Notes under the pieces: generated by a model
Seen by the model: the letters and a program-made list of their open reading frames with translations, nothing else
Databases searched by the model: none
Told to the model about the DNA's origin: nothing
NCBI GenBank assembly: GCA_030390025.1
Contig: CM059432.1
Coordinates: 25,608,001 to 25,672,000, forward strand
Length of the DNA stretch: 64,000 nt
Direction: 5' to 3'
Origin: Squalus acanthias
Lineage: Eukaryota
Part shown: positions 3,644 through 59,817 of the stretch, in pieces
Layout: the number at the start of each line of letters is the position of its first letter
Position numbering within the stretch: the first letter of the stretch is position 1
Made by a program: the position numbers and the translations under genes

Positions 3644-6050
3644 AAGGCAATCTCATAGGTAATGGCAGCGAAATAGCAGAAATACTGAATAGTCACTTTG
3701 CCTCAGCATTTACCAGGGAGACTAACAAGATGGACATGACATTAGAAGAAGAGATCAAAAAAGATATCAAGACATTTAAGATCGAAAGGGGGAGATAATT
3801 GATAAACTAATCAAACTTAGAGAGGATAAAACCCCTGGTCAGTATGGATTGCATCTGCGCATATTAAAAGAAGTGAGGGAAGAGATAGCAGAGGCACTAT
3901 TACATATATATAACAATTTATTACAAAGGAATAATGCCAGGACTAGTGGACAGCTAATGTGATTTCTATATGTAAAAGGGGAGATCGAACAAGTCTAGGG
4001 AACAATAGAACAGTTAGCTTAAAGTCAGTGGTAGGAAAGATAATGTAGTCTTTATTCAAATATGTCAGCTAGAAATTGAAAATATAATAAAGAGTAGTCA
4101 GCACAGATTTCAAAAGGGAAAGTCATACTTGACCAACTTTATTGGCTTCTTTGAAGTAACAAAGAGTAGACAAGGGTAATGTAGTGGATGTAATATTTTT
4201 GGATTTTCAAAAGGCCTTCTATAAGTAGACTCATGACTAAGGTCAGAGCATGTGGAGTCAGGGGCAGGTAGCAGAATGGATAGCAAGCTGATAACAGAGT
4301 GTAGAGGTTAAGGGTAGCTACTGTAAGGGGTCACGGTACTGGTGCGAGGTGAGGCCTTCGTTGCCTATACTATTGCTTGCTCTGGTCTCCGGCCAGACTT
4401 TTGCAATAAGCACCTGTGAGTGGTTCGACCCACTCGCCCTTACGGTTCTGACACCTGGACTTAGATGCAAGGAGCAGTAATGCAGAGAAAAACTCAAATA
4501 GACCCGGTTGAATAGCACGAAATGAATATCTTTATTGCATGGCGTCTAAGATCATGAAATACATGTCATAGGCGCAGATCAAAGAGAGTACAAGTATACA
4601 CACGTTCATAAAACTTGGTCTATGGAAATGAGGAACACACGACACATCGAAAAAGGGGGAACACATTATACATTAACCTTAGAAAAACCACCCTCCCTCA
4701 ATATACCTAAACTACGTCTGGATTTGTAGGATCGGAAAAACATGCTCACCACTCGGCTCACTTCGGAACTTTAAAGTGAGGCACTCAGCTCGTTTCGCTG
4801 CACCGTCTGACTGTCACGTGTTTGGAAGGGTTTCTGCACCCCACTTGTTTACTCTCGCTGCCGCGAAAGGTAAGCCAGACTCCCTGATGTCATGAAGCAG
4901 TCGATGGACTCAGACCGGATCGTGCAGCAATCCGTAGAATTCAAAGGAAACAGTACATGTAGTAGTCGGTAGAATTCAAAGATGGGTTCTGTCGTTATAT
5001 CTTCTGGCGCGGTCGGGGTTTACTGACCGTGGCGGCACGTGGAATTTCTTCTCGTCTTTCTTCTCGTCACTCGGGCCTCCGGGTCCGGACACCGTTTACC
5101 GACACTCGGGATGGTGTACCCTGTTACTTGCCCTGTCGAGGCGGCTCGTTCCGATTGAGCTCCACCCAACACTCGAATAACCGACCAGCACGGCTAAGAG
5201 TCAAGAGTCAAGAGAGTCCAGCAAGAGCTTCAGGAAGAGTCAAGAGTCAAGAGAGAGGCCAGGAAGCGAGAGAGCGAATGGACATTTGTCCTCTATAGTT
5301 ATACTGTTATGTCGGCCTTATCTCCCGCTCATATCTAAACGTTTATTCTTTGTGTGATTTTTGGCGCCCAAAACTCCCAGCATGGGGCGATTATCTTCTT
5401 AACGGGTTTCGGTAGTACCTGAAACTGGCCAACTATCCGTTAATACCTTCTCCATTGTTGAGCCAGCCAGGATTGTAGAATTCGCAATATATCGCGATTT
5501 TATTAATAAGGAGAAAAACACATAGTTTCGTTCAAACAGCTTTTATTTCAGCAGAATGCTGTCAGGTTTTCAAAGTGGACACAAGCAGCTTGTAAAATGG
5601 CCGCCGCACCTCGTGACAGAACATTCTAGACTTTTCGACAGGCAGACAAGATGGCGTTCCAATAAACATTTGTGCAAGATCGATTAAGACTCAGCACATT
5701 GAAGATAATACACGAGACATCATGGGTTTACAGTATACACATAAATACTGAAATCGGTCTCCCAGGTACGAATAAAAGCTATTGTACCAAGCAATCAAGA
5801 ACCCATCCAAAGACATTAATATGTAAAATCCCAACGACTCTACGATGAGAGAGCCGTTAGCGGGTAGTTACAGAAAACACTTGGAAGCCCCAAAACCCCT
5901 CCAGGGAGAACACCGACCGATTAATCAATGGGAAAAATATTAACAGGTACTCAGACAATTACGAGTAGCCCCGAAACCCATTAAAACGAAGATCACCCTA
6001 TACAAGACATTTGAGCGCCAAACCCTAACAAAAGGAAAGACATTAAGGTT

Positions 6051-6081
6051 GGGCGGGAAACGGAAGATTTTGCACTATAAT
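6051..6081 (+). promoter_or_regulatory. Putative LTR core promoter (GC box + TATA-like)
   Basis: GGGCGG at 6051 and TATAAT at 6076; the GGGCGGGA...CACTATAA arrangement recurs in solo LTRs at about 21970-22000 and 58545-58575; YY1-type AAAATGGCCGCC/AAGATGGCG motifs lie upstream (about 5594, 5648). Confidence 0.5.
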
Positions 6082-6899
6082 TGCAAGCTCCAAACCGTCC
6101 ATCTCGCTCCTATTCAGTTGACTCTTATCTTGCTGGTGTTTATCCTCGTGGCTGCTCTTGACTCGCCGTCTTGTTCCTGCTTGCCTCGTGTCTCTTTTCA
6201 AAAGACTGTTGAACTTTATGATCCGCTCGAATCTACCTCGTGTCGTGTCGCGAAGACCTGTGTAGAACTGGGCTCTGAAGCCTTGAAGCGGGCGCACCAT
6301 CCCGATAAGTCGGTAAACGGTGTTGGAACCGAAGGCCCGAGATGAGATGAGATGAGATGAGATGAGAAGAGAAGAAGACCATACTTATCGCCACGGTCAG
6401 TAAGCTCCGACCGCGCCTGTAGGTCAAATAGACACTTTCCTTGCCCAGGAAGACTCTTCTTTGAGTTTTATCGAACCGGTGTGAGGGCACAGGAAGACTC
6501 TTTTTTTGAGTAGTGTCGGAACTCCGAGGACAACACAGATCTTCATGACAGCAGACGTTCCAGCCTGCTAGCCGGAGCAGAAACGAGTAAACAAGTGGGG
6601 CCCGGAGACCCCCTGATCGACACGTGGGTGCTGCGGTGAAAAACATCCGATCAGAGTTTTCGGAATTCTCCGAGTTATCACGAGTGGTGAGCATGAGTCT
6701 CGAATCCTACGAATCTAGCTTAGGACAGATATTGATAGGGGAGGGTTTTAAGTATTAAGGATAATTGTAATGTGTGCCCCCATTTACGATGTGTCGTTCG
6801 TTCCTCGTTTCCCTGAAATTAGTTACATAACTGCGTGTAAGATTGTACTGTCATTAATCTGTGCTTATGACATGTATTTCATAATCTTAAATATTATGC

Positions 6900-6905
6900 A
6901 ATAAA
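6900..6905 (+). promoter_or_regulatory. Putative LTR polyadenylation signal
   Basis: ATGCAATAAAGAT conserved in all related LTR copies, followed by T-rich sequence. Confidence 0.55.
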
Positions 6906-7149
6906 GATTTTCCATTTCGTACCATTCAACCGAGTCTACCTGAGTTTCATCTCCATTATTGCTCTCGCATCTAAGTCCAGTGTCTAGAACCGTAATGGCG
7001 AGTGGGTCGAACCACTCACAGGTGTGTATAGTGCTCCCAGACTGGCTGGAGACCAGAACAGGCAACAAGGCCTAAACCCGCACTAGCACCCGGGCTGCAC
7101 AGAGCCACACGAATCTCACAGGCTGAGAGACAAAAAACCCTTACAGAAA

Positions 7150-8958
7150 ATGGCGACCGCGGCAGGACACTGGCAGCGAGAGGGTAGTGTTTTAGACTTT
7201 GGTGTGAATGTACGAAATGTTATGCAGGAAAAGATAGCAGATTATGTGTTCGGAAAGGTAAATTTAACTAAGAAATGGATAAGTGACCTGTTAGCGGATA
7301 AGTGTCCACTAGAGGCAGCCGAGAGGTGGACAGATAGTAAGGAACATAAAAAGACAGTCGAGAAAGCAGTCTGGTTAATGTGTTACAAAAGGCAGGTCCA
7401 GATTTCAAACCAGATCATTACAGCGCAAACAGCTCGGATCAGGCATTTGGAGGAGGAAATGGATGAGAAGGTCTCTGGAGGGGAGTTGCTCATTAGGAAT
7501 TTAAGTGCGCTGCACCGAGAACGCCAGGAAATCACCAGTCACCATAAAGCAAAAATAGATTACCTCGAGTGCCAGGTCACTGAGGCAAAGTTAAGTGAGG
7601 GCAGACTAAAGGAACGATGTGCCCGCCAAGCTGCCCAAATAAGAGCCCAGGAAGAGAGCTTAACGGGGGTTAGGGCGGCATATAAGATGGCCCTTGAGGA
7701 TAAATTTCAGGGGACCGATCATAGCGTCTGCCAAAAGGAGATAGAGCACCTTAAAAGGGCCGTGAACAAAGCGCACGGCATGGTGTGCCTTATCAGTCCG
7801 TCAGCACACCAGCCACTAGTAGATGAGGAGTCTCAGAAATTCCCACCAAGTAAAGCAAAGGAAGTATTAGCCACTACGCCCTCCGCGCCACCCAGCTATT
7901 TGGAAACCTGGGTAAGGGAGGAAGTAGTAGAAGAAACGAAAGAGCCCACTGAGGAAGAAGTAGAAAAGGGACCGTTGTGTCCAGTTACGGGTATAAAAAG
8001 GGGCCCAAACAGAAACGGTGGGGAGGAACCAGGGGATCTCCTCAACCAGCTTGTGTTGCCTCACAGCTCACACCAGCTGAGAGTTATGATAAATCACGTA
8101 CGGAAGCTGACCGAGTCAGACGACCCTTCCGTACATTTCAGAGAAGTTGAGCAAACCGCAGCCATTAACGGCTGCGACGATGGGGAAACAGCAAAAATGC
8201 TGTTATTTTCGTTAGGCAGTTCAATCCTTCAGTGTCTCTCGGACGAGAGCAAGAGGGGAACCAAGACCTATGAGGCATTAAAAAATGAGGTCCTAGAAGT
8301 ATTGGGGACGGACGATGAAGGTCCGTTTGTTAGAGTGGGACAGACAGTGCAGATGGAGGGAGAACCCCCGAAGGTTTTTGCCGACAGGCTGTGGCCAGTA
8401 TATCAGCGCAGCTGTCCAGGTGCGCCAGAGCGCGACGCTGTGGACGGCGTCGGTTTAACTCATTGGCTCAGGTGTATAGTAGCCAACAGTTTGCCAGCCG
8501 TCAGAGAGCAGGCAAAAGCATGGTTTGATCCCACTGACCCCAACATTACGGAAGAGTCGGTCTTAAATCGACTCACGGTAGGATACCGTAATATAAGGGG
8601 TATGGGAACACGTCCCCTTAAGGGAAAAGTATATGAGGTACGACCCGCAGCCCCGGCTCAAAAGGAGTGGCATCAGGAGGGTAACCGCGCCCCGCAGGCA
8701 AGTAATGCTTGTTACGGGTGTGGGAGGACAGGGCACTGGCGCAAGAACTGCAGGAACCCTTGGAAGGATTCCAGGGATAAAAATCCCGCAGCCCGAGCCC
8801 AGATGCCTGTCTCTGTTAGGGAAGCTAGTGCACCCACCCCTCCCGACGACCTCGAAACAGTGTTGGGAGCCATGCGCAACTTTATGAGTGCACATGGAAG
8901 AGTGGCGGTTGCTACCGGCCCCGTAGGTGCCGCAGGCCCGTCTAACCATACCCAATGA
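7150..8958 (+). CDS. gag: Gag polyprotein (602 aa)
   Basis: Open ORF with strong Kozak (AAAATGG); N-terminal coiled-coil-like region; PSAPPSY late-domain motif (7879-7899); single CCHC knuckle CYGCGRTGHWRKNC (8710-8751). Confidence 0.92.
   Translation: MATAAGHWQREGSVLDFGVNVRNVMQEKIADYVFGKVNLTKKWISDLLADKCPLEAAERWTDSKEHKKTVEKAVWLMCYKRQVQISNQIITAQTARIRHLEEEMDEKVSGGELLIRNLSALHRERQEITSHHKAKIDYLECQVTEAKLSEGRLKERCARQAAQIRAQEESLTGVRAAYKMALEDKFQGTDHSVCQKEIEHLKRAVNKAHGMVCLISPSAHQPLVDEESQKFPPSKAKEVLATTPSAPPSYLETWVREEVVEETKEPTEEEVEKGPLCPVTGIKRGPNRNGGEEPGDLLNQLVLPHSSHQLRVMINHVRKLTESDDPSVHFREVEQTAAINGCDDGETAKMLLFSLGSSILQCLSDESKRGTKTYEALKNEVLEVLGTDDEGPFVRVGQTVQMEGEPPKVFADRLWPVYQRSCPGAPERDAVDGVGLTHWLRCIVANSLPAVREQAKAWFDPTDPNITEESVLNRLTVGYRNIRGMGTRPLKGKVYEVRPAAPAQKEWHQEGNRAPQASNACYGCGRTGHWRKNCRNPWKDSRDKNPAARAQMPVSVREASAPTPPDDLETVLGAMRNFMSAHGRVAVATGPVGAAGPSNHTQ
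7151..7168 (+). promoter_or_regulatory. Primer-binding site, tRNA-Arg(UCG)
   Basis: TGGCGACCGCGGCAGGAC is the reverse complement of the 3' 18 nt of vertebrate tRNA-Arg(TCG) (...GTCCTGCCGCGGTCG-CCA, recalled sequence); lies 5 nt after the LTR end. Confidence 0.88.
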
Positions 8959-11900
8959 CTAGAGCCCGCGCAGCCCGTCTACCTGTGTCCGCTCAGCTAT
9001 GATGCGTGGAAGCGACCCTTGGTGGAGATGGAGGTAGAGAAATTGAAGGGTAGTTATTTGTTGGACACGGGAGCTTCTTGCACCGTGATTCATACAGATA
9101 GCCCTTTTGACTCACTGCTATCTACCAAGGTCCCATTCACATTAGCGGGGTTCACGGGAAAAGAACAGGCTGGCGCATTCTCCTTTCCGCTATCCATTCG
9201 TTTGGGAGCACTTCACATCAAGTGGAAGTGCATATTGATGGAATGGCAGGAGGGGGGTGGAAGAGGTATCCTCGGGTCCGATCTCCTATCAGGGCACGGG
9301 ATCCTCGTGGACCTCAGAAATCATTGTCTCTGGGGGGCTAAGAGTGAAAAAGGCGAGGTAGTGGTAATTCCGGGGGAGGAAGAAACAGGGGTCCTGTGTA
9401 CCATGCAGCCATCCGGAGGCTACGACCTCGGGCTCATGGTAACAGATGTCCCAACGGACATGCAAGCGTACGTGTCAGATAATATGCACGCGTTTGCAAC
9501 CCACAAGCACGATTGTGGGAGGGTTACCGGGTTTGAGGTCAGCGTAGATGGGGACCCCATGACCCGGCCCCAAAAACAGTATAACTTCCCCAAAGAAGCA
9601 GAACCCGATATGGAGACAGCAATGTCCTCCTTGGTGCAGCAGGGCGTGTTGAGGCCGATAGCCACACACGTGAACTCCCCATTATGGCCGGTTAGGAAGC
9701 CAGATAATTCGTGGAGGGCCACGGTGGACTACAGAGTCCTTAACAGTAACATTCCCGCCTGCGCGCCCACGGTAGCAGCAGTTGCTGACCTAATAGGGAG
9801 TATCCCAGCGTCCGCGACCACGTTCACGGTGCTGGATATCTCGAACGGTTTTTGGTCCATCCCGCTGCGGCGAGAGGACCAGTACAAGTTTGCCTTTACT
9901 TTCAAAGGACAACAGTACACATGGAACTGTCTGCCACAGGGTTTCCACAATAGCCCCAGTATTTTCCATCAGTGTATGGCAGGAAGTTTAAAGGAGTTTA
10001 GTCAGCCCAATCAGATAGTGCAGTACGTGGATGATTTGCTCCTATTTACGGACTCAAGGGAGGAGCATGGACCACTGCTGGCCGAGTTATTGGAGCTGCT
10101 AGCGAGAAAGGGTTTTAAAGTAAATCCTAAGAAAGCGCGTATCGGTCAGCAGGAAGTAAAATTCCTGGGGCTGACCATTCGCGCTGGGGAAAGAGCCATA
10201 GATAAGGCTAGGAGGGAGTCGGTGCAAGAGTTACCGATTCCCAACACCATAAGGGGTGTGAGGTCCTTCTTGGGACTGACCGGTTACTGCAGAGATTTTA
10301 TCGAAGATTATGCGGCCGCAGCGGCGCCGCTCCTCCGACTCCTCCATAAGTGAGTGGAGTGGTCTTGGGACGAGGGCTGCCAAGCAGCCTTCGAGAAGTT
10401 AAAAAAGGATCTGCAGACCGCGCCAGCCTTAGGGGCCATAGATGGGGGGAAGGAGTTTTTCCTGGAGGTAGCTGCCAGCGGGGACAGCTTGAGCGCTGTG
10501 CTGCTCCAAGAGCGTCACGGCAAGCTGAGGCCGGTTGTCTATTCGTCCAGGGTGTTAACGGATGTGGAGAGGAGTTTCTCCAATTGCGAAAGGCACCTTT
10601 TAGCCACGCATTGGGCTGTGAAAAGATCAGCGATCTTCACAGGGCTCTCTCCCATCACTCTCCTCACCCATCACACACCAACTAAGATGCTTTTAGATGG
10701 GAGGATTAAAGATGGGACCGTAAGCAGCGTGCGCATTGCGCGCTGGACCCTTCTTCTTTCCCAGATGGATCTTAGAGTAAAAGGTCTTTGCGAGCCCAGG
10801 CTTGCGGCCAATTTGGTATACCCCGGTACAGCCCACCGATGTTCGGTGGAAGGGGTGTGGGACGTCAACATAGGTTTGCGGGCCGGGATACATCCCACTG
10901 GGCGCGAGATTTATGTTGATGGCTCTAGCACAGTATCTGCTGGCGAACGACTCACAGGGTGTGGAGTTTATGACCCTGCGGCAAACCTTGCCCTGGCGAT
11001 CAAGCTCCCTAGCACCATGAGCGCGCAGCAGGCTGAGCTGTCTGCAGTGGTGTACGTTGTTACCCACCCAGACATTTTCCCAACCACATACACGATTTGC
11101 TCGGACAGTATGTTCACATGTAATTCGTGTACGGAATACCTGGCCATTTGGTCCCGCCGTGGATACACCTCCGCGGACGGGCGACCTTTAACGGTGAAGC
11201 CCTTGCTGAAAAAGATCCTAGCAGCAGTAGGGGAGGAAGGGGAGATTTTCATCCATAAGGTGAAGGCTCACTCCTCCACAGAGCCCCGTGGGGAGGGCAA
11301 CCAGCAGGCGGATGCGCTAGCCAGGGAAGGTGCCCGCAACGGCATTTTCTGGGACCCCTATGGGACCAGACCCATGGCAGCGATCCAAGGCAGGGACGGG
11401 AATCCCGGGAACTCCAGGGTAGCATTGCCCCTAGACCTTAAGACCGTCCAAACCCAGGATCCCGCCCTAAAAGCAGTCATAAAAACCATTGCTGAGGGGA
11501 AGCAAGTAGAGGGTCCGTACAGTACGGCAACCCTCTCAGTTAAGGAAGGCATGCTGTTCCACGAGGAGCAGTGGGTTGTGCCGCAGCAGCACAGGAGGGA
11601 ATTCCTCCAGTTGGCTCACGAGGGACCAGGGGCAGGGCACCCCGGGCCCGAGGTTACCTGGCAACGGGTAGAGCAAGCGGGATGGTGGCCAGGGCTCAGG
11701 GAACAGGTCCGCGAGTTCTGTGCAAACTGTCTCGTGTGCGCTGCAAACAACCCAGACCCCCAGAAAAGGAAAGTGCCCATGGGGCACGTAAGAAGGGTAG
11801 AGGGACCATGGCAGTCGATACAGATCGACTATATAGGGCCCCTGCCCACCACCCAGGGAGGCTATAAATACTGCCTTGTCTTGGTGGATGTGTTTTCCAA

Positions 11901-13485
11901 ATGGGTGGAAGCCTTCCCCTGTCGAACAGCTACGGCACTGGGTACTGCAAAAATCTTGGTCAGGGAAGTGTTCTCGCGGTGGGGACTTCCCCGTTTTGTG
12001 GAGTCAGACCAAGGGAGTCATTTCACCGGCCAGGTGATGCAGAACACCCTCATGCTTTTGGGCATTGAAGGGAAGTGGCACGTAGCACACAATCCCCAGT
12101 CATCCGGGATTGTTGAACGCATGAACCGGACCCTGAAGGAGAAATTGAGGAAAGAGACTAGGAACTCGCCCCAAAAATGGGCGGAAGTTCTGCCTTTAGT
12201 CCTCATGGGGGTCCGGGCCAGTCAGTCAAAAAGTACGGGGTATTCCCCGCACGAGGTGATGACTGGGAGGCTCATGCGAACCCCCACCCATGTGCTAGCG
12301 CCGGTGCTCACTGAGGGTCAGCTTCAAGAGATAAGCAGGGACAAGTTCGCCCAGACCCTCTTGGAGCGCCTGAAGCAGGTTTATGAGCAGGCGGCTGGGA
12401 ACATGGGAAGGCAGCATCAGGGCAATCGCCTGTTGCTGGAACCCCGCAAAACGCGGGAGTGGGAAGTAGGAGACCAGGTCATGGTCAGAAACTACGCCAG
12501 AGTAGGGAGTCTGGATCCACTGTATATGGGACCCTACAACATTGTAGATAAGGCGAGTCCCATGGTATACGCCGTAAAGGTACCTCGGCGCACTAAGTGG
12601 TTCCATGTAAACCAGTGCAAACTGTACAAGCCAGGTGCACAAGGGAAAACCACAGGGGCAAAACCTGCGAGTGGGGACTCGCAGCCCCAGGTAGGACCAC
12701 AAGGCACACAGGCAGGCAAAGCAGCTTGCATCAGGGGAGGAGACATCCTGGAAAATTGTGAAACATTTTTGTGGGGTTGGGAGTCAGATGAGGGAGAGTT
12801 CCCGGAACTCGAGTCAGATGAGGATAGTGATGAGGACGAGTGGGAATCGGGGAACGCAAGGGTCGCCCCCGAATCAGGTATAGGGAGGACAGGGGCTGCA
12901 GATAGAGATCCACACAGGGTGGACACCGAGGCTGCAGGTCCCGAACACAGGAGGGAGGAGCTAGGGGAGGCGGAGCCAGCCGCTGTGAGACCACAGGGCG
13001 TGACGGCGGAAACCTCAGAGCCCGAGCCGCCCGCCTTGAACGTCCTGCCCTCGGGGGAGGTAGAGATTGCGAGGGAAGGGCCGCCTGCTGGGCCGAGCAG
13101 GGCGGTGCCACAAGCTGCTAGTCCCGAGGTCAGTGAGGCGGAGTCAGGGGAGGCGGAGCCAGCGACTGTGGTGGGACCACAGGTCGTCCCGGTGGAAGTC
13201 TCGGAACCCGGTCCGTCGGTCCTGGGATTCCTGCCCCCGACAACTCCTCGTAGGTCCAGTCGAGCACCCCAGCCCAGGAAGATGTGGTCATGTCCACAGA
13301 CTGCCCCAAGGCGCAGGCTTAAGGTTAAAGCAGCCCCGGAAGGGCCCAGTCCCATCGCAGCAGCAACAGGCTGCGGCAGATCAAAGGAAGGGGTCAGTGC
13401 AGCCACAGGCTGCGGCAGATCAAAGGAAGGGGTCAGTGCCCTCCCACCGTCGGGAAGAGCCCGCAGCAGCCTTCTCAGAATTTAA
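8959..13485 (+). CDS. pol: Pol (protease, RT, tether/degenerate RNase H, RNase H, integrase), in frame with gag; one internal TGA at 10351-10353
   Basis: LLDTGAS (PR); LDISNGF, LPQGF and YVDD (RT); tether with EVAAS; IYVDGSS...AQQAEL...SDS...KAH...GNQQAD (RNase H); HHCC plus IDYIGP/SDQGSHF/VERMNRTLK (IN); GPY motif. Confidence 0.93.
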
Positions 13486-13836: not shown

Positions 13837-16188
13837 ATGGAACGAATTCTAGTATTGCTCGCGGCAATCGGATGTGGATTGGCCTATCGAGGCCGCACCA
13901 AGGATGTCATGGTGTTTGGATGCTCCGGGGACACGGCCCCCATCGCGGTGGATGGGACCGGAAGACGGGAGGCTGAGGAGACCACCACCTATTTCCACAA
14001 GGGAAGGTGGCCAGGATGGCTGGGAACGAACTCAACGGAGTATTCCAGCACATCGGGGTTTGCCTACCAAGAGACTTCTTTAATGTGCCCCAAAGTAAGG
14101 ATCATCGCACCCAGGATCAGCGTCACCGTCGGCAAACGGATTTGTTTGACTTGTAATGGGAATGTCCCATTGAGCCGATGGTGGTGGCTGCGAAAGCTGA
14201 GCAAAAACATGAGGAACTCTTCGGTCGAGTGGGAACGACTGGGTAATAATACCCATCGGACAATTACGGGGACAAACGGACAAGTGAGAGTCTGTTGGGA
14301 CAAATGGTGGGAACCGGATGAGGGAATTTATGTATGCATGTGGGGGTCAAAGTACGCTTGCCCCAAAGGCATCTCCATATTTTTCATTAATCAATGGCAG
14401 GATAACGGACAGGGGATGAGGTGGGATGCGAGCACCAGGGGGTGCGGAGCCCCATACTCTTCTATCCCGGTAAATGCCACTGAGCTGATTACGCGCCCAC
14501 GCAAAGCCCCGCCCACGATTCCGGTGGTTCTAGCTGAAGAGGAAGGGTGCCCTAAAACTAGTAAGGGACCCGGGAATGGTTTGGTACTGGTCCCCACAGA
14601 CCAGATATTATTTCAGGGGGTACATTACGCGGTGGCCTCGGTGATTTTAAATCTCACCGAGGTGCGGTTACCAGAGTGGTGCCCCAAAAAGACGGAACAG
14701 TTATATCAGGTCCTGGTGACCAAGATGTTCAGACAATTTTACGAATTCGATTTCGCGGAAATTGATAAAACAAGTTTGTACACTGCACCACATGAAGTTT
14801 TTGATCAAGTGGGGAGACAAAGAAGGGGTGTAGTGAACGACGCGTTCACTGCTTTTAACACGGGTACATCTGTGGTCAACGCTCTAGACAGTGTGGAGCT
14901 GCAGACCCAGATTAATGGTTTAAAGGCGCAATTAAAAGACATTCTAACAGATGAAAACAAGGTGGTTGGGTCGGGTTTACACGAGGACCAAGCCATGACT
15001 CTCCATTTAAAGGAAATTATAGCAGAGCTAGAGAAACATGCAAAGACGTTAAATGCCCTGATTAGGGAAGATCGGAATGCATCCGATCAAGCTGCGCAGA
15101 ATGAGGTGTGCGTGCTTTACGGGGCGTGGTTACTGGGCGAGGGCCGCAGTAATTTGGAGGATTTAAAACAAGGTTTGGTCCCGTCCTGGATAAGTAACAA
15201 ACACCTGCGGGCGCTCCACCCTTTTCAGAACGCATTAAGCCCGTGCCAGCTCAGGTTAGCTTCAGAAGCATACCCAGTCCCCGTGGACTGCGGACGATCA
15301 AACCATACTATCATGGGTATAGTATTACGTATGCCGGTTTTGGGCGACACAGCAAAGCCCGCCCCGGTGTATCGGGTAGAGAACATTGGTGTCATTCAGG
15401 GGGGAGCCCACATTCGCTATGCAGCGGTTCCACCCTACGTCATCCGCTGGGAGCAAACGATGACAGGTACAGATCTCTCTGGTTGTCGTGGCAGGGGAGC
15501 ACACATAATACTGTGTCCCCAGCACTTGAATGCCTTTTTAACACCACAGTGCGGGTTCAGAACGGCTGGCGCCAAGTCCATGAATTGCACCATGGAGGCA
15601 ATGGCACAAGATCATGTGCCTCCGCAGGTAGCATACATCGGGGGTGGAACATATTGTGTTACCACTGCAGCGCAACACTACCAGCATGGAAACCGTAGCC
15701 GGTGTCCGGTGAGTGACAGCAGTTTCTGTTTCAAACCCAGGGCGGAAGTTCAAGTAGCACAACAGCGAATTGTCCCAATCCCTGAACCATCCACTGTTCA
15801 TCTTACAGTAAAAGAGAATTTCACCGACTTGCAGCGATTCGTCGCGCATTTCGGATACATCATTCCCCCTCTCCCTGAACACCTCACCAAGCTTTTGAAA
15901 GCCATCACGGTGTCACAGAAACATTTTTACACACTCGAACAGAAAACTGTCAAAATAGGGACAGACATTCTGGATATAGTAATTCCACCGTGGTGGAATC
16001 TGTTCACCAATATTGAAGTGCCTTCATGGATCAGAATAGCCTCCCACATTTTAGTCGTATGCCAAGTTTTTATTGTAGTGTACCTATTGATCGTACATTG
16101 TAAAAGAGGCAAACGCCTCACCAAGCATGAAAACACGGGAGAGTGGCGAGAACGTTACGTGCGCGTGCACGACGAAAGCACCATGTGA
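13837..16188 (+). CDS. env: Envelope glycoprotein, F-protein-like class I fusion protein with N-terminal Ig-like domain (783 aa from the ATG)
   Basis: ATG in AGGATGG context after candidate acceptor CACAG (13823); signal peptide MERILVLLAAIGCGLA; furin site RQRR (14815-14826); heptad repeat; Cys-rich ectodomain; several N-X-S/T sites; TM WIRIASHILVVCQVFIVVYLLIVHC; short tail. Confidence 0.88.
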   Translation: MERILVLLAAIGCGLAYRGRTKDVMVFGCSGDTAPIAVDGTGRREAEETTTYFHKGRWPGWLGTNSTEYSSTSGFAYQETSLMCPKVRIIAPRISVTVGKRICLTCNGNVPLSRWWWLRKLSKNMRNSSVEWERLGNNTHRTITGTNGQVRVCWDKWWEPDEGIYVCMWGSKYACPKGISIFFINQWQDNGQGMRWDASTRGCGAPYSSIPVNATELITRPRKAPPTIPVVLAEEEGCPKTSKGPGNGLVLVPTDQILFQGVHYAVASVILNLTEVRLPEWCPKKTEQLYQVLVTKMFRQFYEFDFAEIDKTSLYTAPHEVFDQVGRQRRGVVNDAFTAFNTGTSVVNALDSVELQTQINGLKAQLKDILTDENKVVGSGLHEDQAMTLHLKEIIAELEKHAKTLNALIREDRNASDQAAQNEVCVLYGAWLLGEGRSNLEDLKQGLVPSWISNKHLRALHPFQNALSPCQLRLASEAYPVPVDCGRSNHTIMGIVLRMPVLGDTAKPAPVYRVENIGVIQGGAHIRYAAVPPYVIRWEQTMTGTDLSGCRGRGAHIILCPQHLNAFLTPQCGFRTAGAKSMNCTMEAMAQDHVPPQVAYIGGGTYCVTTAAQHYQHGNRSRCPVSDSSFCFKPRAEVQVAQQRIVPIPEPSTVHLTVKENFTDLQRFVAHFGYIIPPLPEHLTKLLKAITVSQKHFYTLEQKTVKIGTDILDIVIPPWWNLFTNIEVPSWIRIASHILVVCQVFIVVYLLIVHCKRGKRLTKHENTGEWRERYVRVHDESTM

Positions 16189-16630: not shown

Positions 16631-16639
16631 AGGAGGGAC
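16631..16639 (+). promoter_or_regulatory. Polypurine tract (short)
   Basis: AGGAGGGAC immediately 5' of the 3' LTR TG. Confidence 0.7.
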
Positions 16640-18311
16640 TGTAGAATTCGCAATATATCGCGATTTTATTAATAAGGAGAAAAACACATAGTTTCGTTCA
16701 AACAGCTTTTATTTCAGCAGAATGCTGTCAGGTTTTCAAAGTGGACACAAGCAGCTTGTAAAATGGCCGCCGCACCTCGTGACAGAACATTCTAGACTTT
16801 TCGACAGGCAGACAAGATGGCGTTCCAATAAACATTTGTGCAAGATCGATTAAGACTCAGCACATTGAAGATAATACACGAGACATCATGGGTTTACAGT
16901 ATACACATAAATACTGAAATCGGTCTCCCAGGTACGATTAAAAGCTATTGTACCAAGCAATCAAGAACCCATCCAAAGACATTAATATGTAAAATCCCAA
17001 CGACTCTACGATGAGAGAGCCGTTAGCGGGTAGTTACAGAAAACACTTGGAAGCCCCAAAACCCCTCCAGGGAGAACACCGACCGATTAATCAATGGGAA
17101 AAATATTAACAGGTACTCAGACAATTACGAGTAGCCCCGAAACCCATTAAAACGAAGATCACCCTATACAAGACATTTGAGCGCCAAACCCTAACAAAAG
17201 GAAAGACATTAAGGTTGGGCGGGAAACGGAAGATTTTGCACTATAATTGCAAGCTCCAAACCGTCCATCTCGCTCCTATTCGGTTGACTCTTATCTTGCT
17301 GGTGTTTATCCTCGTGGCTGCTCTTGACTCGCCGTATTGTTCCTGCTTGCCTCGTGTCTCTTTTCAAAAGACTGTTGAACTTTACGATCCGCTCGAATCT
17401 ACCTCGTGTTGTGTCGCGAAGACCTGTGTAGAACTGGGCTCTGAAGCCTTGAAGCGGGCGCACCATCCCGATAAGTCGGTAAACGGTGTTGGAACCGAAG
17501 GCCCGAGATGAGATGAGATGAGATGAGATGAGAAGAGAAGAAGACCATACTTATCGCCACGGTCAGTAAGCTCCGACCGCGCCTGTAGGTCGAATAGACA
17601 CTATCCTTGCCCAGGAAGACTCTTCTTTGAGTTTTATCGAACTGGTGTGAGGGCACAGGAAGACTCTTTTTTTGAGTAGTGTCGGAACTCCGAGGACAAC
17701 ACAGATCTTCATGACAGCAGACGTTCCAGCCTGCTAGCCGGAGCAGAAACGAGTAAACAAGTGGGGCCCGGAGACCCCCTGATCGACACGTGGGTGCTGC
17801 GGTGAAAAACATCCGATCAGAGTTTTCGGAATTCTCCGAGTTATCACGAGTGGTGAGCATGAGTCTCGAATCCTACGAATCTAGCTTAGGACAGATATTG
17901 ATAGGGGAGGGTTTTAAGTATTAAGGATAATTGTAATGTGTGCCCCCATTTACGATGTGTCGTTCGTTCCTCGTTTCCCTGAAATTAGTTACATAACTGC
18001 GTGTAAGATTGTACTGTCATTAATCTGTGCTTATGACATGTATTTCGTAATCTTAAATATTATGCAATAAAGATTTTCCATTTCATACCATTCAACCGAG
18101 TCTACCTGAGTTTCATCTCCATTATTGCTCTCGCATCTAAGTCCAGTGTCTAGAACCGTAAGGGCGAGTGGGTCGAACCACTCACAGGTGTGTATAGTGC
18201 TCCCAGACTGGCTGGAGACCAGAACAGGCAACAAGGCCTAAACCCGCACTAGCACCCGGGCTGCACAGAGCCACACGAATCTCACAGGCTGAGAGACAAA
18301 AAACCCTTACA
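16640..18311 (+). repeat. 3' LTR (1672 bp)
   Basis: Direct repeat of 5474-7145, preceded by a purine tract and followed by TSD GGAT. Confidence 0.96.
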
Positions 18312-19383
18312 GGATGTGTATGAATCGTCTCCTCGACTGGTTTTGGGGCCCCCCGAATACTGGCTTAATCACCCGCCAATGTCTCTCTCATTGTTGAGCC
18401 GGGGGTGGGGGGGGTATTTGTGTATTGATGTGTCTAGATGGGTTCAATGATCCTTACTGTGCGTAGGAAACGATTCCAGCACTTATATCATTGCTATTGT
18501 TCAAGATGCGAACGGGTTGCATCCTGTCTTTACAATGTGTACCGAGTATGATCCGATCTCATACTGAATGTATATTCGACGCCATCTTGTCTGCCCACTG
18601 TGTCTCTGGAAGCTTCTGCCACGATGCGCGGCGGCCATTTTACAGGCTTCTGTGTCCTTATTATCAGGGCAGCATTTCGTTTAATAAAAATGATCAATTG
18701 AATCTGCTTCTCTCATGTTATTTTGAATCGCGATAATTGCGAAACTCTACACTACTCAGACTGGCAAAAGGTGGGAAGTGGTGTTCCACAGAGATCGATG
18801 CTGGGACCACGGTTGTTCACAATTTAAATTAATGATTTGGACTCGTGAATCGGAAGTACAATTTCTAAATTTGCAGACAACACCAAATTTGAGGGTATAG
18901 TTAATACAAAGGAAGAATGCGACAAAATACAGGAAGACATTAATAAGTTTGCAGACTGGGTATGTAATTGGCAAATGAATTTCAACATAGATAAGTGTGA
19001 GGTGGTGCATTTTGGTAGGAAGAATAAGGAGGCCACATATTAATTGGATTAATGGGGGGAATTTTGCCGGTGCTCAGGGAGCGGGTTTGGAGGCGGGACC
19101 GGTGGCAAAATTGCAAAGATTGACAGCGGGTCCCTAACCCGCTGTCAACCCGCCTCCAGTCAATCTTCCCGGGTGTCGGGTCCCCGATTTGCGCAGGGAT
19201 CTGACACCTAGCGGCGGAAGAGGATTATAGGCACTTAACTGCTTGTTAACAGGTTGTTAACAGGCAGTTAAGAGGCTTTTTCCAATTTTGGCATGTCTAC
19301 TGCAGGCTTCCCGACGTCCGGACACCACGCCAGGGTAAGTGTGGTGTGCTGTGGGTCTACTGTAATGTTTCTTCATTGATGAC

Positions 19384-20729: not shown

Positions 20730-23160
20730 CCTGATCCCCAATCACACCTGCAAATCCTCCCTACCCCGAAACCCGATCACATCTGCAACACCCTCCCGAT
20801 CCCCGATCATATCTGCAAAACCCTCCCGAGCCCCAATCACATCTGCAACACCCTCCCGATCCCCGATCATATCTGCAAAACCCTCCTGAGCCCCGATCAC
20901 ACCTGCAACACCCCCCGATCCCCGATCACATCTGCAACACCCTCCCCAGCCCCGATCACATCTGAAACACTCTCCCGAGCCCTGATCACATCTGCAGTAG
21001 CCTCCCAAGTCCCGATCACATCTGTAACACACCACCCGATCCCCGATCATATCTGTAACACACCACCTGATCCCCGATTACATCTGTAACACACCACCCG
21101 ATCCGCGATCACATCTGCAACACCCTCCCCAGCCCCGATCACATCTGCAACACCTTTCCCAGCCCCGATCACATCTGCAACACCCTCCCCAGCCCCGATC
21201 ACATCTGCAACACCTCTCCCCTGATCCCCGATCACATCTGCAACACCCTCCCCAGCCCCGATCACATCTGCAACACCTCTCCTGAGCCCCGATCACATCT
21301 GCAATCCCCCACCCTGGATCACGTCTGCAAAATCCCCCAATCCCCGATCACGACTGTAACACCCTCCCCAGCCCCGATCATGTCTGTAAAGTTTCGCAAT
21401 TATCGCGATTCGAAATAACAAGATAGAAGCAGATTCGTTTGATCAGTTTATTTAAACAAAATGCTGTCATGATATAAAGGACACAGAAGCCTGTAAAAAG
21501 GCTGCCGCGCATTGTGGCAGAAGCTTCCAGAAGTACAGTGGGCAGACAAGATGGCGTTTGAATAAACATTTTCAATATAAGACGGGATCATACTCGATAA
21601 GCACTGATAAAGACAGGATGCAACCTGTTTGCATTTGTGACAATAGCAAAAGATATAAGTGCTGGAATCGTTTTCAAGTAAGGACCATTGTACTGGGCAA
21701 TCGAAGGCCCATCCAGACACATCAATACACAAATACCCCCACGGCTCTACAGTGAGAGAGCCATTCTCGGGTGATTAAACAAGCATTCGGGGGCCCCCCA
21801 AAACCAGTCAGGGAGACGATTCATACGATCCTGGCTGGGCCAACAATGGGGAGAACATTAACGGGTAGTTGGCCAGTTTCAGGTGCTACCGAAACCCGTT
21901 AAAGACAAGAATCGCCCCATGCTGGGAGTTTTGAGCGCCAATATTTCACAAAGGACAAACATTAAGATTTGGGCGGGAGATAAGGGAACACAGCACTATA
22001 ACTATAGTGAACAAATGTCCATCGGTCTCTTATTCTCTTGATTCGGGGCCTTATTCTCTTATCTCGCTGCTGACTGCAGAGGGTTTTCGGTGTTCTCTCT
22101 GGACTCTGTTGACTATGTTGGGTGGAGCTCAAACGGAAGGAGCCGCCTCAATGAGGGCCAGTGACCGTGTGCACCATCCCGAGAGTTGGTAAACGGTGTC
22201 TGGACCCGAAGGCCCGAAGAGACGAGACGAGACGAGACGAGAAGAAGAGGAGAAGAATCCACGTGCCGCCGCGGTCAGTAAACCCCGACCGCGCCCAAAA
22301 ATATACGACCCATTTCTTGAACTCTACAGGTTACTGCACGAACTGGTCAAAGACTCTTTTTCGAATTCTACCGGCAACCGGTGTCGGACACAGGAAGACT
22401 CTTCTTCGAACCGTGTCCGAGTTCTGTCGAGTTCTTCATGACAACGGGGATCCCAGCCTGCTTGCCGCAGCAGCGAAGATAAACAAGTGGGGTACAGAGA
22501 CCCCTCAAAACACGTGACAGTCAGGCGCTGCAGCGAAACGAGCCGAGTGCCTCACTTTTAAAATTCTCCGAAGTATCACGAGTGGTGAGCATGTTTCCCG
22601 ATCCTACAAATCTAGATGTAGTGTAGGTATTGATAGGGGAGGGTGGTTTTATTAAGGATAAAGTATAATGTGTTCCCCCTTTTACGATGTGCCGTGCGTT
22701 CTTCATTACCATAGACCAAGCTTTATGAATGTATGTATACTTGTACTCTCGTTAATTTGCGCCTATGACATGTACTTCATGATTTTGGACGCTATGCAAT
22801 AAAGATTTCCATTTCGTACTATTCAACCGGGTCTATTTGAGTTTTTCTCTGCATTACTGCTCTCGCACCTAAGTCCAGTGTTAGAACCGTAAGGGCGAGT
22901 GGGTCGAACCACTCACAGGTGCTTATTGCAACAAGGCTGGCCGGAGACCAGAGCAAGCAATAGTATTAGGCAACGAAGGCCTAACCTCGCACCAGCACTG
23001 TCTGTGATACAAGCACGCCAAAACCCCTTACATGTCTGCAATAAGGCCCCCCGATCCCTGATCACATCTGCAACACCTCCCCAATCATGTCTGCAACACC
23101 TCTCCCAATCCCTGATTGTGTCTGAAACACCCCTCCCGATCGTCTCCAGACCCCTCCCCA
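20730..23160 (+). repeat. About 30-bp minisatellite (CCCCGATCACATCTGCAACACCCTCCCCAG), split by the solo LTR (20730-21384, 23037-23160)
   Basis: More than 20 visible degenerate tandem copies; lies inside a GC-rich MITE-like segment (about 20470-23395). Confidence 0.9.
21385..23032 (+). mobile_element. Solo LTR (1648 bp, subfamily B)
   Basis: TGTAAAGTTTCGC...CCCCTTACA; TSD TGTC at 21381-21384 and 23033-23036; shares blocks with the proviral LTR. Confidence 0.92.
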
Positions 23161-57946: not shown

Positions 57947-59817
57947 AGTTAAGTAAATCTGGCCATGATGTAGAATTCGCAAAATTATCGCGATTTTATA
58001 AAATAAGAAGGAGACATAAAGTTTCGTACAAACAGCTTTATTTCAGCAGAATGCTGTCAGGTTTCAAAGCGGACACAAACAGCCTGTAAAATGGCCGCCA
58101 CGCCTCGTGGCAGAACGTTCTAGACTTTCAATGGGCAGACAAGATGGCGTTCCAATAAACATTTGTGCAAGATCGTACAGGACTCAGCACATTTGAGATA
58201 ATTGACAAGACATGATGGGTTTGCATTTTATACATAAATACTGGAATCGGTCTCCCAGGTGCGAATAAGGGCTATTGTACCGAGCGATCAAGAACCCATC
58301 CAAAGACATTAATATGCAAAATCCCCACGACTCTACGATGAGAGAGCCGTTTGCGGGTAGTTACAGAAAGCATTTGGAAGCCCCAAAACCCCTCCAGGGA
58401 GACTACTAGCCGGTTCCACAATGGGAGAAGTATTAACGGGTACTCAGACAGTTACAAGTATCACCGAAACCCATTAGAAACGGAGATCACCCTATACAAG
58501 AAGTTTGAGCGCCAAAACCCTGACAAAAGATAGACATTAAGATTGGGCGGGAAAAGAGGAATTACAGCACTATAACTGTAAGGTATAACCGTCCATCTTT
58601 CGCTTGATGCTCTTGCTGCTGACTGCTGCCTCTGCTTCTTCTTGCTCTTGCTGCTTTGACTCGCTGGAAGGCTGTTGAACTTTTATTCTCTTGCCTGACG
58701 GCTCTGGACTCTGATCCGCTAGGATCAACCTCGTGGCTTGCCGCGAAGATCTGTGTAGAACTGGGCTGTGAGGCCTGGAAGCGGGCACACCATCCCGAGA
58801 AGTCGGTAAACGGTGTTGGAACCGAAGCCCCGAGAGGAGATGAGATGAGATGAGATGAGATGAGAAGAGAAGAAGACGACAATACGTATCGCCACGGTCA
58901 GTAAGCCCCGACCGCGCCTGTAAGTCGAATAAACACTTCCTTGCCCAGGAAGACCCTTCTTTGAGTTTTACAAACTGGTGAGGGCACAGGAAGACTCTTT
59001 TTCGAGTAGTATCGGAACTCCGAGGACAACACAGATCTTCATGACAGCAGACGGTCCAGCCTGCTAGCCGGAGCAGAAACGAGTAAACAAGTGGGGTACA
59101 GAGACCCCTGATCAGCACGTGGATAGTCAGGTGCTGCGGTAAAAACATCTGAGCAGAGTTTCGGAATTCTCCGAGTTATCACGAGTGGTGAGCATGAGTC
59201 TCGATCCTACAAATCTAGATTAGGACAGGTATTGATAGGGGAGGGTTTAAGTTTTAAGGATAATTATAATGTGTGTCCCCTTTTTCGATGTGTCATGCGC
59301 TCCTCGTTTCCCTAAAATTAGTTACATAACTGTGCGTAAGATTGTACTGTCGTTAATCTGTGCTTATGACATGTACCTCGTAATCTTGAATAATATGCAA
59401 TAAAGATTTCCATTTCGCACTATTCAACCGGGTCTACCTGAGTTTTTCTCTGCATTATTGCTCTCGCACCTAAGTCCAGTGTCAGAACCGTAAGGGCGAG
59501 TGGGTCGAACCACTCACAGGTGTCTAGTGTTACCAGGCTGGCTGGAGACCAGAACAGGCAACAAGGCCTAACCTCGCACTAGCACCCAGGCTAAGCACAG
59601 AGCCGCAGGTCACCCCTTACAATGATGAGGCCATCCCTGGCCTCCCGGGCAACAATGTGGTCGGGTGCTGATGCCCTCTATCCTGTGCAGCATCAGGTGA
59701 TTGCGGAGAAGGTTGGTGTTGTTGTTGGTGCTGCTGGTATGCCTGGTGCTGCTGGTGTTGGGGCTCATCGTGGTCAGATTCTGAGGACCAAGGTGAGACT
59801 GTATAAATGGCACCCAT
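57947..59817 (-). pseudogene. Harbinger transposase remnant (N-terminus joined to C-terminal helix; core deleted; split by solo LTR)
   Basis: Removing the LTR restores HIVAREARDGLIMARFT-stop, resembling the usual Harbinger transposase end; Q/H-rich N-terminus from ATG 59817. Confidence 0.55.
57969..59621 (+). mobile_element. Solo LTR (1653 bp, same subfamily as the provirus)
   Basis: TGTAGAATTCGC...CCCCTTACA; TSD ATGA at 57965-57968 and 59622-59625; colinear with the proviral LTR including the (GAGAT)n tract. Confidence 0.93.

Follow-up and report, generated by a model that had tools for sequence, protein, structure and literature searches.

A predicted paramyxo-/pneumovirus F-like envelope protein in an abundant endogenous retrovirus of the shark Squalus acanthias

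Several groups of retroelements carry envelope proteins that resemble F, the fusion protein of negative-strand RNA viruses. According to Wang and Han (2020), the lokiretrovirus Env is related to mononegaviral F and matches the Pfam family Fusion_gly at E 2.2e-7, and a genome screen for lokiretroviruses was positive in 0 of 6 chondrichthyan genomes (PMC7947760). The RTs of lokiretroviruses form a clade that is sister to the canonical retroviruses. The foamy virus Env has an F-like core (PDB 8rm0, 8rm1, 8ozh; Fernandez et al. 2024, PMC11468914). Errantiviruses too are LTR elements, and their env is of the F type and cleaved by furin; for those of invertebrates the authors report that they found no homologous vertebrate elements (PMC13524379). 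An F-like layout is therefore not new for a retroviral Env, since it has been published for lokiretroviruses, foamy viruses and errantiviruses (PMC7947760, PMC11468914, PMC13524379). A different env, of the immunosuppressive-domain type, has been described in cartilaginous-fish ERVs (PMC11521997). In the lokiretrovirus, cartilaginous-fish ERV and WDSV literature we found no published description of the Env family reported here or of an F-like epsilonretrovirus Env.

Here we investigate an env gene of Squalus acanthias. Positions are those of the window, the whole stretch of 64,000 nucleotides that was analysed, and all features are on its + strand. The gene lies between pol and the 3' LTR of a provirus that is bordered by a 4 bp target-site duplication, GGAT (5470..5473; 3' copy 18312-18315), in the sequence flanking both LTRs. 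The 5' LTR (5474..7145, TG...CA, 1672 nt) differs by 11 mismatches from the 3' LTR (16640..18311), which was identified by its match to the 5' LTR, and the pair is 99.3% identical. A polypurine-tract-like run, read from the sequence, is present at 16631..16639, immediately upstream of the 3' LTR. The gag gene (7150..8958) encodes 602 aa, with a coiled coil in the N-terminal part and a single CCHC zinc knuckle (zf-CCHC E 0.0054, below the cut-off). It ends at an in-frame TGA, after which pol continues in the same frame, and this TGA is kept in all four of the other full-length copies checked. The pol gene (8959..13485) is comprised of protease, RT, tether, RNase H, integrase and a long acidic/Pro-rich tail, with Pfam matches to RVT_1 (1.5e-36), RNase_H (1e-20), Integrase_H2C2 (1.3e-17) and rve (3.1e-15). 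In this copy it is interrupted by an in-frame stop at 10351-10353, where 5/5 other full-length copies are open.

The genome of Squalus acanthias contains at least 57 near-identical env copies on many contigs, 54 of the 57 without a stop, and the 57 scored matches are all 98–100% identical in protein. Wherever another copy was examined with its upstream DNA (8/8), gag/pol adjoin env in the same way. Among 10 env copies pN/pS is 0.06 (pS 0.059, pN 0.0037), with pN biased downward because the 10 are the best protein scorers of the 57. The env gene is under purifying selection, and the endogenous retrovirus family is of recent origin and present in very many copies, most of them open in env. The leader-to-env splice joint was not seen in contigs of four runs (RNA label presumed) that span the whole provirus, an observation that is uninformative either way.

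In the ORF listing env occupies 13837..16188 and encodes 783 aa plus stop. The hydrophobic N-terminus (mean hydropathy 2.2) is a predicted signal peptide of aa 1-16 (13837..13884), with its cleavage inferred. It is followed by a variable module, aa 17-234 (13885..14538), which is confined to close relatives; in more distant homologues the alignment begins no earlier than about aa 221-235. The module may contain Ig-like strands at aa 88-183, as the Pfam family Ig_3 is matched at E 0.32 here and by 4/58 homologues (best E 0.0027), and it is likely to be the receptor-binding part of the protein. Next comes an F2-like segment, aa 235-326 (14539..14814), with C238 and C282 conserved in 91% and 88% of homologues, respectively. 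A motif search located the furin-type site RQRR at aa 327-330 (14815..14826). This is the sole R-x-[KR]-R of the ectodomain, since the only other in Env, RGKR, belongs to the cytoplasmic tail (aa 757), and a basic [RK]xx[RK] is aligned at the cleavage position in 22/31 homologues.

The product C-terminal of RQRR would be 453 aa long and begins GVVNDAFTAFNTGTSVVNAL. Its first residues, aa 331-350 (14827..14886), include conserved G343 and N348 and form a putative fusion peptide, a role assigned from position. The mean Kyte-Doolittle hydropathy is 0.70, and the post-RQRR peptide is weakly hydrophobic across the family (median 0.47, range -0.35 to 1.09, 31 aligned homologues). The peptide is far less hydrophobic than expected of a fusion peptide, which is a point against the reading of Env as a fusogen. 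No CX6CC, CX6C or CC was found by regex search in the whole Env. The first-pass annotation, made from the DNA letters, had described a 453-aa anchored subunit left by RQRR, an unusually polar fusion peptide and the lack of CX6CC, and these three observations are all borne out.

An AlphaFold2 model of the Env monomer was made from 58 homologous sequences and no templates. Its overall confidence was moderate (pLDDT 62, pTM 0.48), but per 10-residue block the pLDDT reached 86–92 at aa 241-300, within the F2-like segment, and 69–95 at aa 421-650. Confidence was low over the N-terminal module, aa 17-234, and below 50 at aa 315-356, the cleavage site and fusion-peptide region. A model from the single sequence had a pLDDT of 34 and was unusable. 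After the cleavage site the model places helices at 331-374 and 383-444, and an HRA-like long helix, aa 351-444 (14887..15168), falls inside the span aligned to post-fusion F. Beyond it are beta-rich, Cys-rich domains at aa 477-645 (15265..15771; pLDDT 71–95 per 10-residue block) that match F domains I and II and contain conserved Cys at 485, 550, 560, 572, 584, 607, 623 and 631. Of the ten Cys at aa 425-631, eight are kept in at least 85% of homologues; the other two are C572 (78%) and C470 (50%). The model then has an HRB-like helix at aa 680-711 (15874..15969), with structural alignments that extend to residue 708-716, and a membrane helix at 730-763. The transmembrane anchor itself is aa 731-755 (16027..16101), with hydropathy up to 2.56, and leaves a 28-aa tail to 16185. 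By hydropathy it belongs to the one strong membrane segment of Env, about aa 728-758, the protein having besides this just the 16-aa signal-type stretch at its N-terminus. The Cys-rich region, second helix and TM segment of the first-pass annotation can thus all be recognised. Its "long heptad repeat" stands in part: the predicted helices are there, but a crude a/d heptad scan flags only aa 249-279 and 652-703. Because the scan left the post-cleavage helix unflagged, the repeat rests on the predicted helix.

What does this predicted fold resemble? In the PDB, Foldseek returned 244 matches at E<=0.001, and the best 50 listed were all paramyxo-/pneumovirus F, headed by RSV F in its post-fusion form (6apb_A, E 1.8e-11, probability 1.00). 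A second look with VIA gave Z>=8 for 221 of 993 chains, and again the best 50 listed were all paramyxo-/pneumovirus F; the top chain was hPIV3 F (1ztm_C, Z 13.3, rmsd 8.4, 382 aligned), with model residues 245..708 placed on chain residues 26..484. When VIA was run independently of Foldseek over all 48,161 representatives, 11 chains had Z>=8, of which nine were paramyxo-/pneumovirus F (best NDV 3maw_A, Z 12.4) and two were foamy-virus Env (8rm1_D, Z 8.4, 301 aligned; 8rm0_A, Z 8.3, 280 aligned). Below Z 7.3 the scan yielded mostly unrelated helical proteins. The rmsd of the best rows is large (8–19 Å) because the long helices differ in position. Among predicted viral structures, BFVD gave 61 matches at E<=0.001, including mononegaviral glycoproteins, paramyxovirus F0 and baculovirus F, the last at E 4e-12 (Q919H3) to 1e-7. 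Predicted Envs of the epsilonretroviruses WEHV-1 and WDSV also have F-like folds in this database. The nearest ESM Atlas clusters carry Gypsy/Baculo_F and Fusion_gly (scores 0.93–0.95), which serves as a lead only.

No orthoretroviral TM or gp41-like chain was among the matches listed for Foldseek against the PDB or for either VIA comparison; absence from such a listing does not by itself exclude a family. The first-pass annotation had proposed an F layout rather than SU/TM, of paramyxo-/pneumovirus or alternatively baculovirus type, and both parts of the proposal agree with the structural matches. It had also named best hits to gp41/TM folds as the result that would overturn this reading; since the best matches listed are to F and none of them to gp41/TM, that objection falls away. 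Even its starting point, 14570, lies within codon 245, where the structural alignments to F start. The F-type reading of Env is therefore supported, on the evidence of a predicted model.

Sequence searches gave a different picture. The Fusion_gly and Baculo_F profiles had been put forward as a check. Pfam returned no match to Fusion_gly for Env at E<=1, nor for 16 homologues at E<=0.1, and the family was absent among the 25 listed of 89 Pfam families for 58 Env homologues. Baculo_F and Foamy_virus_ENV likewise had no match to Env at E<=1, and Baculo_F was matched by 1/58 homologues, below the cut-off (E 1.1e-3, 18.1 bits vs 24.1). A profile of 40 Env homologues run against PDB sequences matched nothing but an HR2-TM stretch of a coronavirus spike (E 1e-4) and a HERV-K TM (E 0.023), and so no F protein. 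With phmmer, Env against PDB sequences produced chance matches only (E about 1), and a word-based protein search with the Env alignment added no relatives. The likeness of Env to F, as modelled, is structural and is not found at the sequence level. This family escapes profile searches, and structure prediction alone exposes its likeness to F.

We consider that Env from aa 245 to about 708 folds like paramyxo-/pneumovirus F and would act as a furin-primed class I fusogen, with a probability of about 0.88. The predicted fold is collinear with F (hPIV3 1ztm, NDV 3maw, RSV 6apb) over the whole F ectodomain. Like F, it is predicted to have a small N-terminal piece and a large anchored piece with a furin-type site between them; a long helix would follow the new N-terminus, and after it come beta domains rich in disulphides, another helix, an anchor near the C-terminus and a short tail. 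The shark Env differs from F in a sequence identity of 6–15% with no Pfam Fusion_gly match, in about 220 extra residues ahead of the F2-like piece and in a far more polar putative fusion peptide. It is also encoded by a retrovirus and without a separate attachment protein gene, whereas F comes from negative-strand RNA viruses. Predicted baculovirus F (Ld130) models match as well, and the baculovirus F and errantivirus Env families (PF12259, PF07253) are those carried by the ESM Atlas clusters, but the shark Env itself has no Pfam match to them, and the pol beside it has the dual RNase H of retroviruses and is not of the Ty3/gypsy type, as it is in errantiviruses.

Since the predicted fold matches F of the measles and RSV type, the same manner of membrane fusion is likely. 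In order, the protein would consist of a signal peptide, a lineage-specific and possibly Ig-like N-terminal module, an F2-like segment, RQRR and an F1-like subunit of 453 aa, the last made up of fusion peptide, HRA helix, disulphide-rich beta domains, HRB helix, anchor and 28-aa tail. A precursor trimer would form and be cleaved after RQRR by a furin-type protease. The N-terminal module would then bind the target cell, a task that in paramyxoviruses belongs to a separate attachment protein. HRA would extend and drive the newly freed N-terminus into the membrane of the target cell, and HRB would pack onto the HRA coiled coil, drawing both membranes together; in F proteins the refolded trimer is a six-helix bundle.

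To which retroviral lineage does the element belong? Its pol has a dual RNase H, in that the RNase_H match is downstream of RT and the intervening stretch aligns to the XMRV/MLV RT connection and RNase H. A viral-contig scan with RT alone found no match; with an alignment as query, 21 loci came up. The best of them is a 10.7-kb gag-pol-env record whose pol is nearest to MLV-type RT and whose 1042-aa Env matches the shark Env family weakly (hhalign probability 69%, E 4.5e-5, 121 columns). The element could be a lokiretrovirus as Wang and Han (2020) define the group, with an Env that is a divergent lokiretroviral one, an identification that is plausible but that on balance we do not adopt. The two Envs have in common a signal peptide, an RXKR-type site followed by a putative fusion peptide, a coiled coil and a membrane anchor, in a provirus with dual RNase H, yet the published retroviral Env is detectable with Fusion_gly and the shark Env is not (PMC7947760). 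The pol order RT-tether-RNase H-integrase fits, and the nearest named pol relatives, with 45% identity in frogs and 41% in coelacanth, come from host classes of lokiretroviruses; the nearest frog pol, however, is that of Pyxicephalus adspersus, which was negative in the lokiretrovirus screen (PMC7947760). The same screen was positive for Xenopus tropicalis, which has Env homologues, but such homologues are also held by Scyliorhinus torazame and Chiloscyllium punctatum, both among the 0/6 chondrichthyans (PMC7947760). The gag product matches at aa 65-205 only SMC coiled-coil models, very weakly (E 0.26–0.4), and an 'smc' gene is described in some lokiretroviruses. Two further observations count against a lokiretrovirus: the RT scores best with foamy-virus PR-RT (182 bits vs 160–164 bits for MLV-type RT), and cartilaginous-fish ERV RTs were mostly clade III in a survey (PMC11089739). 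That RT score (7kse, E 1.7e-52), with the best integrase score, to PFV (E 1.2e-33), would suit instead a foamy-like endogenous retrovirus with an Env of spumaretrovirus type sharing the F-like core, but this we regard as improbable. Foamy Env chains were the sole non-F proteins with Z>=8 among the 48,161 and the BFVD matches include feline foamy gp130 (E 1.3e-4), but F scores clearly higher (Z up to 12.4–13.3) and Foamy_virus_ENV has no match at E<=1. Foamy Env is described as having a leader peptide that spans the membrane a second time (PMC11468914), which is missing in the shark Env with its short signal-type stretch and single strong membrane segment. The extra module is N-terminal in the shark Env and inserted within SU in foamy Env. 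An unusually long TM subunit is common to both. To our knowledge, foamy viruses have neither a gag CCHC knuckle nor a gag stop read through into pol, unlike the shark element.

Two other explanations would remove the F-type fusogen from a working retrovirus altogether. Were Env an ordinary orthoretroviral SU/TM protein, gamma-type or gp41-like, the F-like model would be a prediction artefact, as the moderate overall confidence and the weak profile matches to HERV-K TM and the coronavirus HR2-TM stretch might suggest. This is very hard to credit for a protein with neither CX6CC nor CC and a C-terminal subunit of 453 aa, with a match to F carried by confident beta-rich domains and not helices alone, and with orthoretroviral TM in none of the matches listed. 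The gene might also be a fusogen domesticated by the host, or a paramyxovirus gene that became endogenous, as would fit an open ORF under purifying selection; its position within an element bordered by LTRs and a target-site duplication, the same place beside gag/pol in 8/8 other copies and the at least 57 near-identical copies across many contigs make this most improbable.

If Env is indeed an F-type fusogen, cartilaginous fishes would join the hosts of retroviruses that use such a fusion protein. Tentatively, and with some doubt, we suggest that the element represents a recently active shark/skate retroviral lineage, distinct from the published lokiretroviruses, with an F-type fusogen bearing its own N-terminal receptor-binding head. 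F-like folds are also seen for foamy and predicted epsilonretrovirus Envs, and if the suggestion is true, the ancient and common envelope among retroviruses of lower vertebrates would be the F-type fusion machine and not the gp41/TM type. Because the family is so recent and numerous, with env open in most copies, it lends itself to the study of two questions: by what means such envelopes attach and fuse when no separate attachment protein exists, and how old the tie between the fusogens of retroviruses and mononegaviruses may be.

The env reading frame of the provirus (13837-16188, frame 1) encodes a 783-residue protein, Env. The first-pass annotation had read its layout as that of the paramyxo- and pneumovirus fusion glycoprotein F, not as a retroviral SU/TM arrangement, and every feature that it listed is present. 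RQRR is found at residues 327-330 and is the only such furin site in the ectodomain. It leaves a C-terminal subunit of 453 residues, which begins with the peptide that had been quoted, contains a Cys-rich region with ten cysteines (residues 425-631), and has a membrane segment at about residues 731-755 followed by a 28-residue tail. A motif search of the whole of Env found no CX6CC, the motif said to be missing, and likewise no CX6C or CC. The putative fusion peptide, described as unusually polar, is weakly hydrophobic across the entire family (median 0.47).

Sequence methods leave Env unnamed, whereas structure prediction names it F-like. Profile searches assigned Env to no Pfam or NCBIfam family. 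Fusion_gly was not among the families listed for 58 Env homologues, Baculo_F was matched by one of the 58, under its cut-off, and a profile search of PDB sequences with the Env family returned no F protein. An AlphaFold2 model of Env, made with a 58-sequence alignment as input, has a mean pLDDT of 62, with most of the F2-like segment and of the beta-rich domains at 85-95. Foldseek found 244 matches to this model in the PDB at E≤0.001. The top 50, which are those listed, are all paramyxo- or pneumovirus F, so the F-type layout is supported by the predicted structure. The leading matches are post-fusion RSV F (E 1.8e-11) and hPIV3 F; post-fusion chains rank first because the model holds the long continuous helix of that form. 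VIA-align placed 382 residues of the model on hPIV3 F with Z 13.3 (model 245-708 on F 26-484), an alignment that takes in the entire F ectodomain, in order. In a scan of 48,161 chains independent of Foldseek, Z was at least 8 for eleven, comprising nine F proteins and two foamy-virus Envs; rows under Z 7.3 are mostly unrelated helical proteins. Predicted viral structures that match the model include mononegaviral glycoproteins, baculovirus F, paramyxovirus F0, feline foamy gp130 and the Envs of two walleye epsilonretroviruses.

When 1.84 billion representatives were searched exhaustively, 51 Env homologues emerged at E≤0.001, the named sources being sharks, skates and frogs. A basic site is aligned with RQRR in 22 of the 31 homologues covering that position, G343 and N348 are kept in the putative fusion peptide behind it, and most ectodomain cysteines are conserved in 85-96% of sequences. 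Because they are conserved among homologues, these features are more than chance. Alignment of the remoter homologues begins only at about residues 221-235, which makes the first 220 residues an addition specific to the lineage. This N-terminal module is weakly Ig-like (Ig_3, E 0.32, a model matched by 4/58 homologues).

From the likeness to F we infer how Env may act. The precursor would form a trimer and then be cut after RQRR, the N-terminal module would bind the target cell, and the HRA-like helix (residues 351-444) would extend before the HRB-like helix (680-711) folds back to give a six-helix bundle.

The env containing the F-like region is part of a complete LTR-bounded provirus. The 5' LTR (5474-7145) and 3' LTR (16640-18311) are each 1672 nt, bounded by TG...CA, and differ from one another at 11 positions. 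A 4-bp duplication, GGAT, lies on both sides of the pair, and a purine run immediately precedes the 3' LTR. The insertion boundaries are supported by a stretch at 21743-21900 on the minus strand, part of a host repeat, that resembles both flanks joined (85-87% identity) and so represents a paralogous 'empty site'. Elsewhere in the window there is a solo-LTR-like copy at 57962-59604 which, at 86% identity to the provirus LTRs, represents an older relative of the family. Shorter LTR-related stretches occur at 4373-4755 and 22430-22960.

A TGG-initiated PBS-like stretch (7151-7168) lies five bases past the 5' LTR and overlaps the ATG of gag (7150-8958, frame 1). The in-frame TGA closing gag is present in all four other full-length copies checked there, which fits read-through expression of pol (8959-13485, frame 1). 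Pfam matches in pol are protease-like, RVT_1, RNase_H, Integrase_H2C2 and rve, and the stretch from RT to RNase H can be aligned to the connection and RNase H of MLV-type RT. The C-terminus of pol (12700-13485) is an acidic, Pro/Ser/Glu-rich tail of about 260 residues, for which no family match was found; a 39-nt near-repeat lies within it at 13360-13439. The N-terminal third of Gag (residues 65-205, window 7342-7764) is a long coiled coil. In the library it matches SMC models alone, and those very weakly (E 0.26-0.4); it may be what is named an 'smc' gene in the lokiretrovirus paper.

A survey of env in the 3.71-Gb genome gave 12,920 first-look candidates, of which 57 matches were scored. All 57 are full length with 98-100% protein identity, and 54 have no stop. 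Ten env copies differ by 0.6-2.3% in DNA, with pN 0.0037 against pS 0.059 (ratio 0.06). Since the ten are those scoring highest at the protein level, pN is biased downwards, but a sixteen-fold shortage of amino-acid changes is hard to obtain from neutral copies even so. Reinfection, and not intracellular copying, is the likely origin of the copies, whose lineages would have split at a time when Env was required. The six full-length copies examined, that of the window among them, all have an open env, while gag or pol is broken or truncated at least once in every one of them. In the window copy a private in-frame stop (10351-10353) interrupts pol, where the five others are open. Three of eight other copies fetched with upstream DNA (L011, L013 and L015) lack most of pol (window 8991-12605) and retain full-length gag and an open env; within the family, they are a non-autonomous gag-env form.

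Is the provirus a lokiretrovirus? It may be: frog and coelacanth sequences are nearest to its pol. However, foamy-virus proteins give the best scores for its RT and integrase. The lokiretrovirus screen (PMC7947760) had none of six chondrichthyan genomes positive, and two of those six hold homologues of the shark Env; the survey in PMC11089739 places most cartilaginous-fish ERV RTs in clade III.

Other retroviral Envs also resemble the predicted fold. The walleye epsilonretrovirus Envs Q9WHI8 and A4GTG3 (BFVD predicted structures) match the F-like model with E 1.1e-11 and 4e-9, and our literature search found no paper that calls an epsilonretroviral Env F-like. The 1042-aa Env of L019, a 10.7-kb viral record with gag-pol-env, has a weak profile match to the shark family (6407-9532, probability 69%). 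Published accounts describe a lokiretrovirus Env with similarity to Fusion_gly (E 2.2e-7; PMC7947760), a structural core common to foamy virus Env and F (PMC11468914; meeting report PMC12390576), F-type env in invertebrate errantiviruses (PMC13524379) and a virosphere-wide survey of RSV-F-like fusogens (PMC12583693). F-like retroviral envelopes have thus already been published, and the shark Env family adds to them. Unlike those published, it is without profile-level similarity to F, has an extra N-terminal module, comes from a different host class, and is very young and very abundant.
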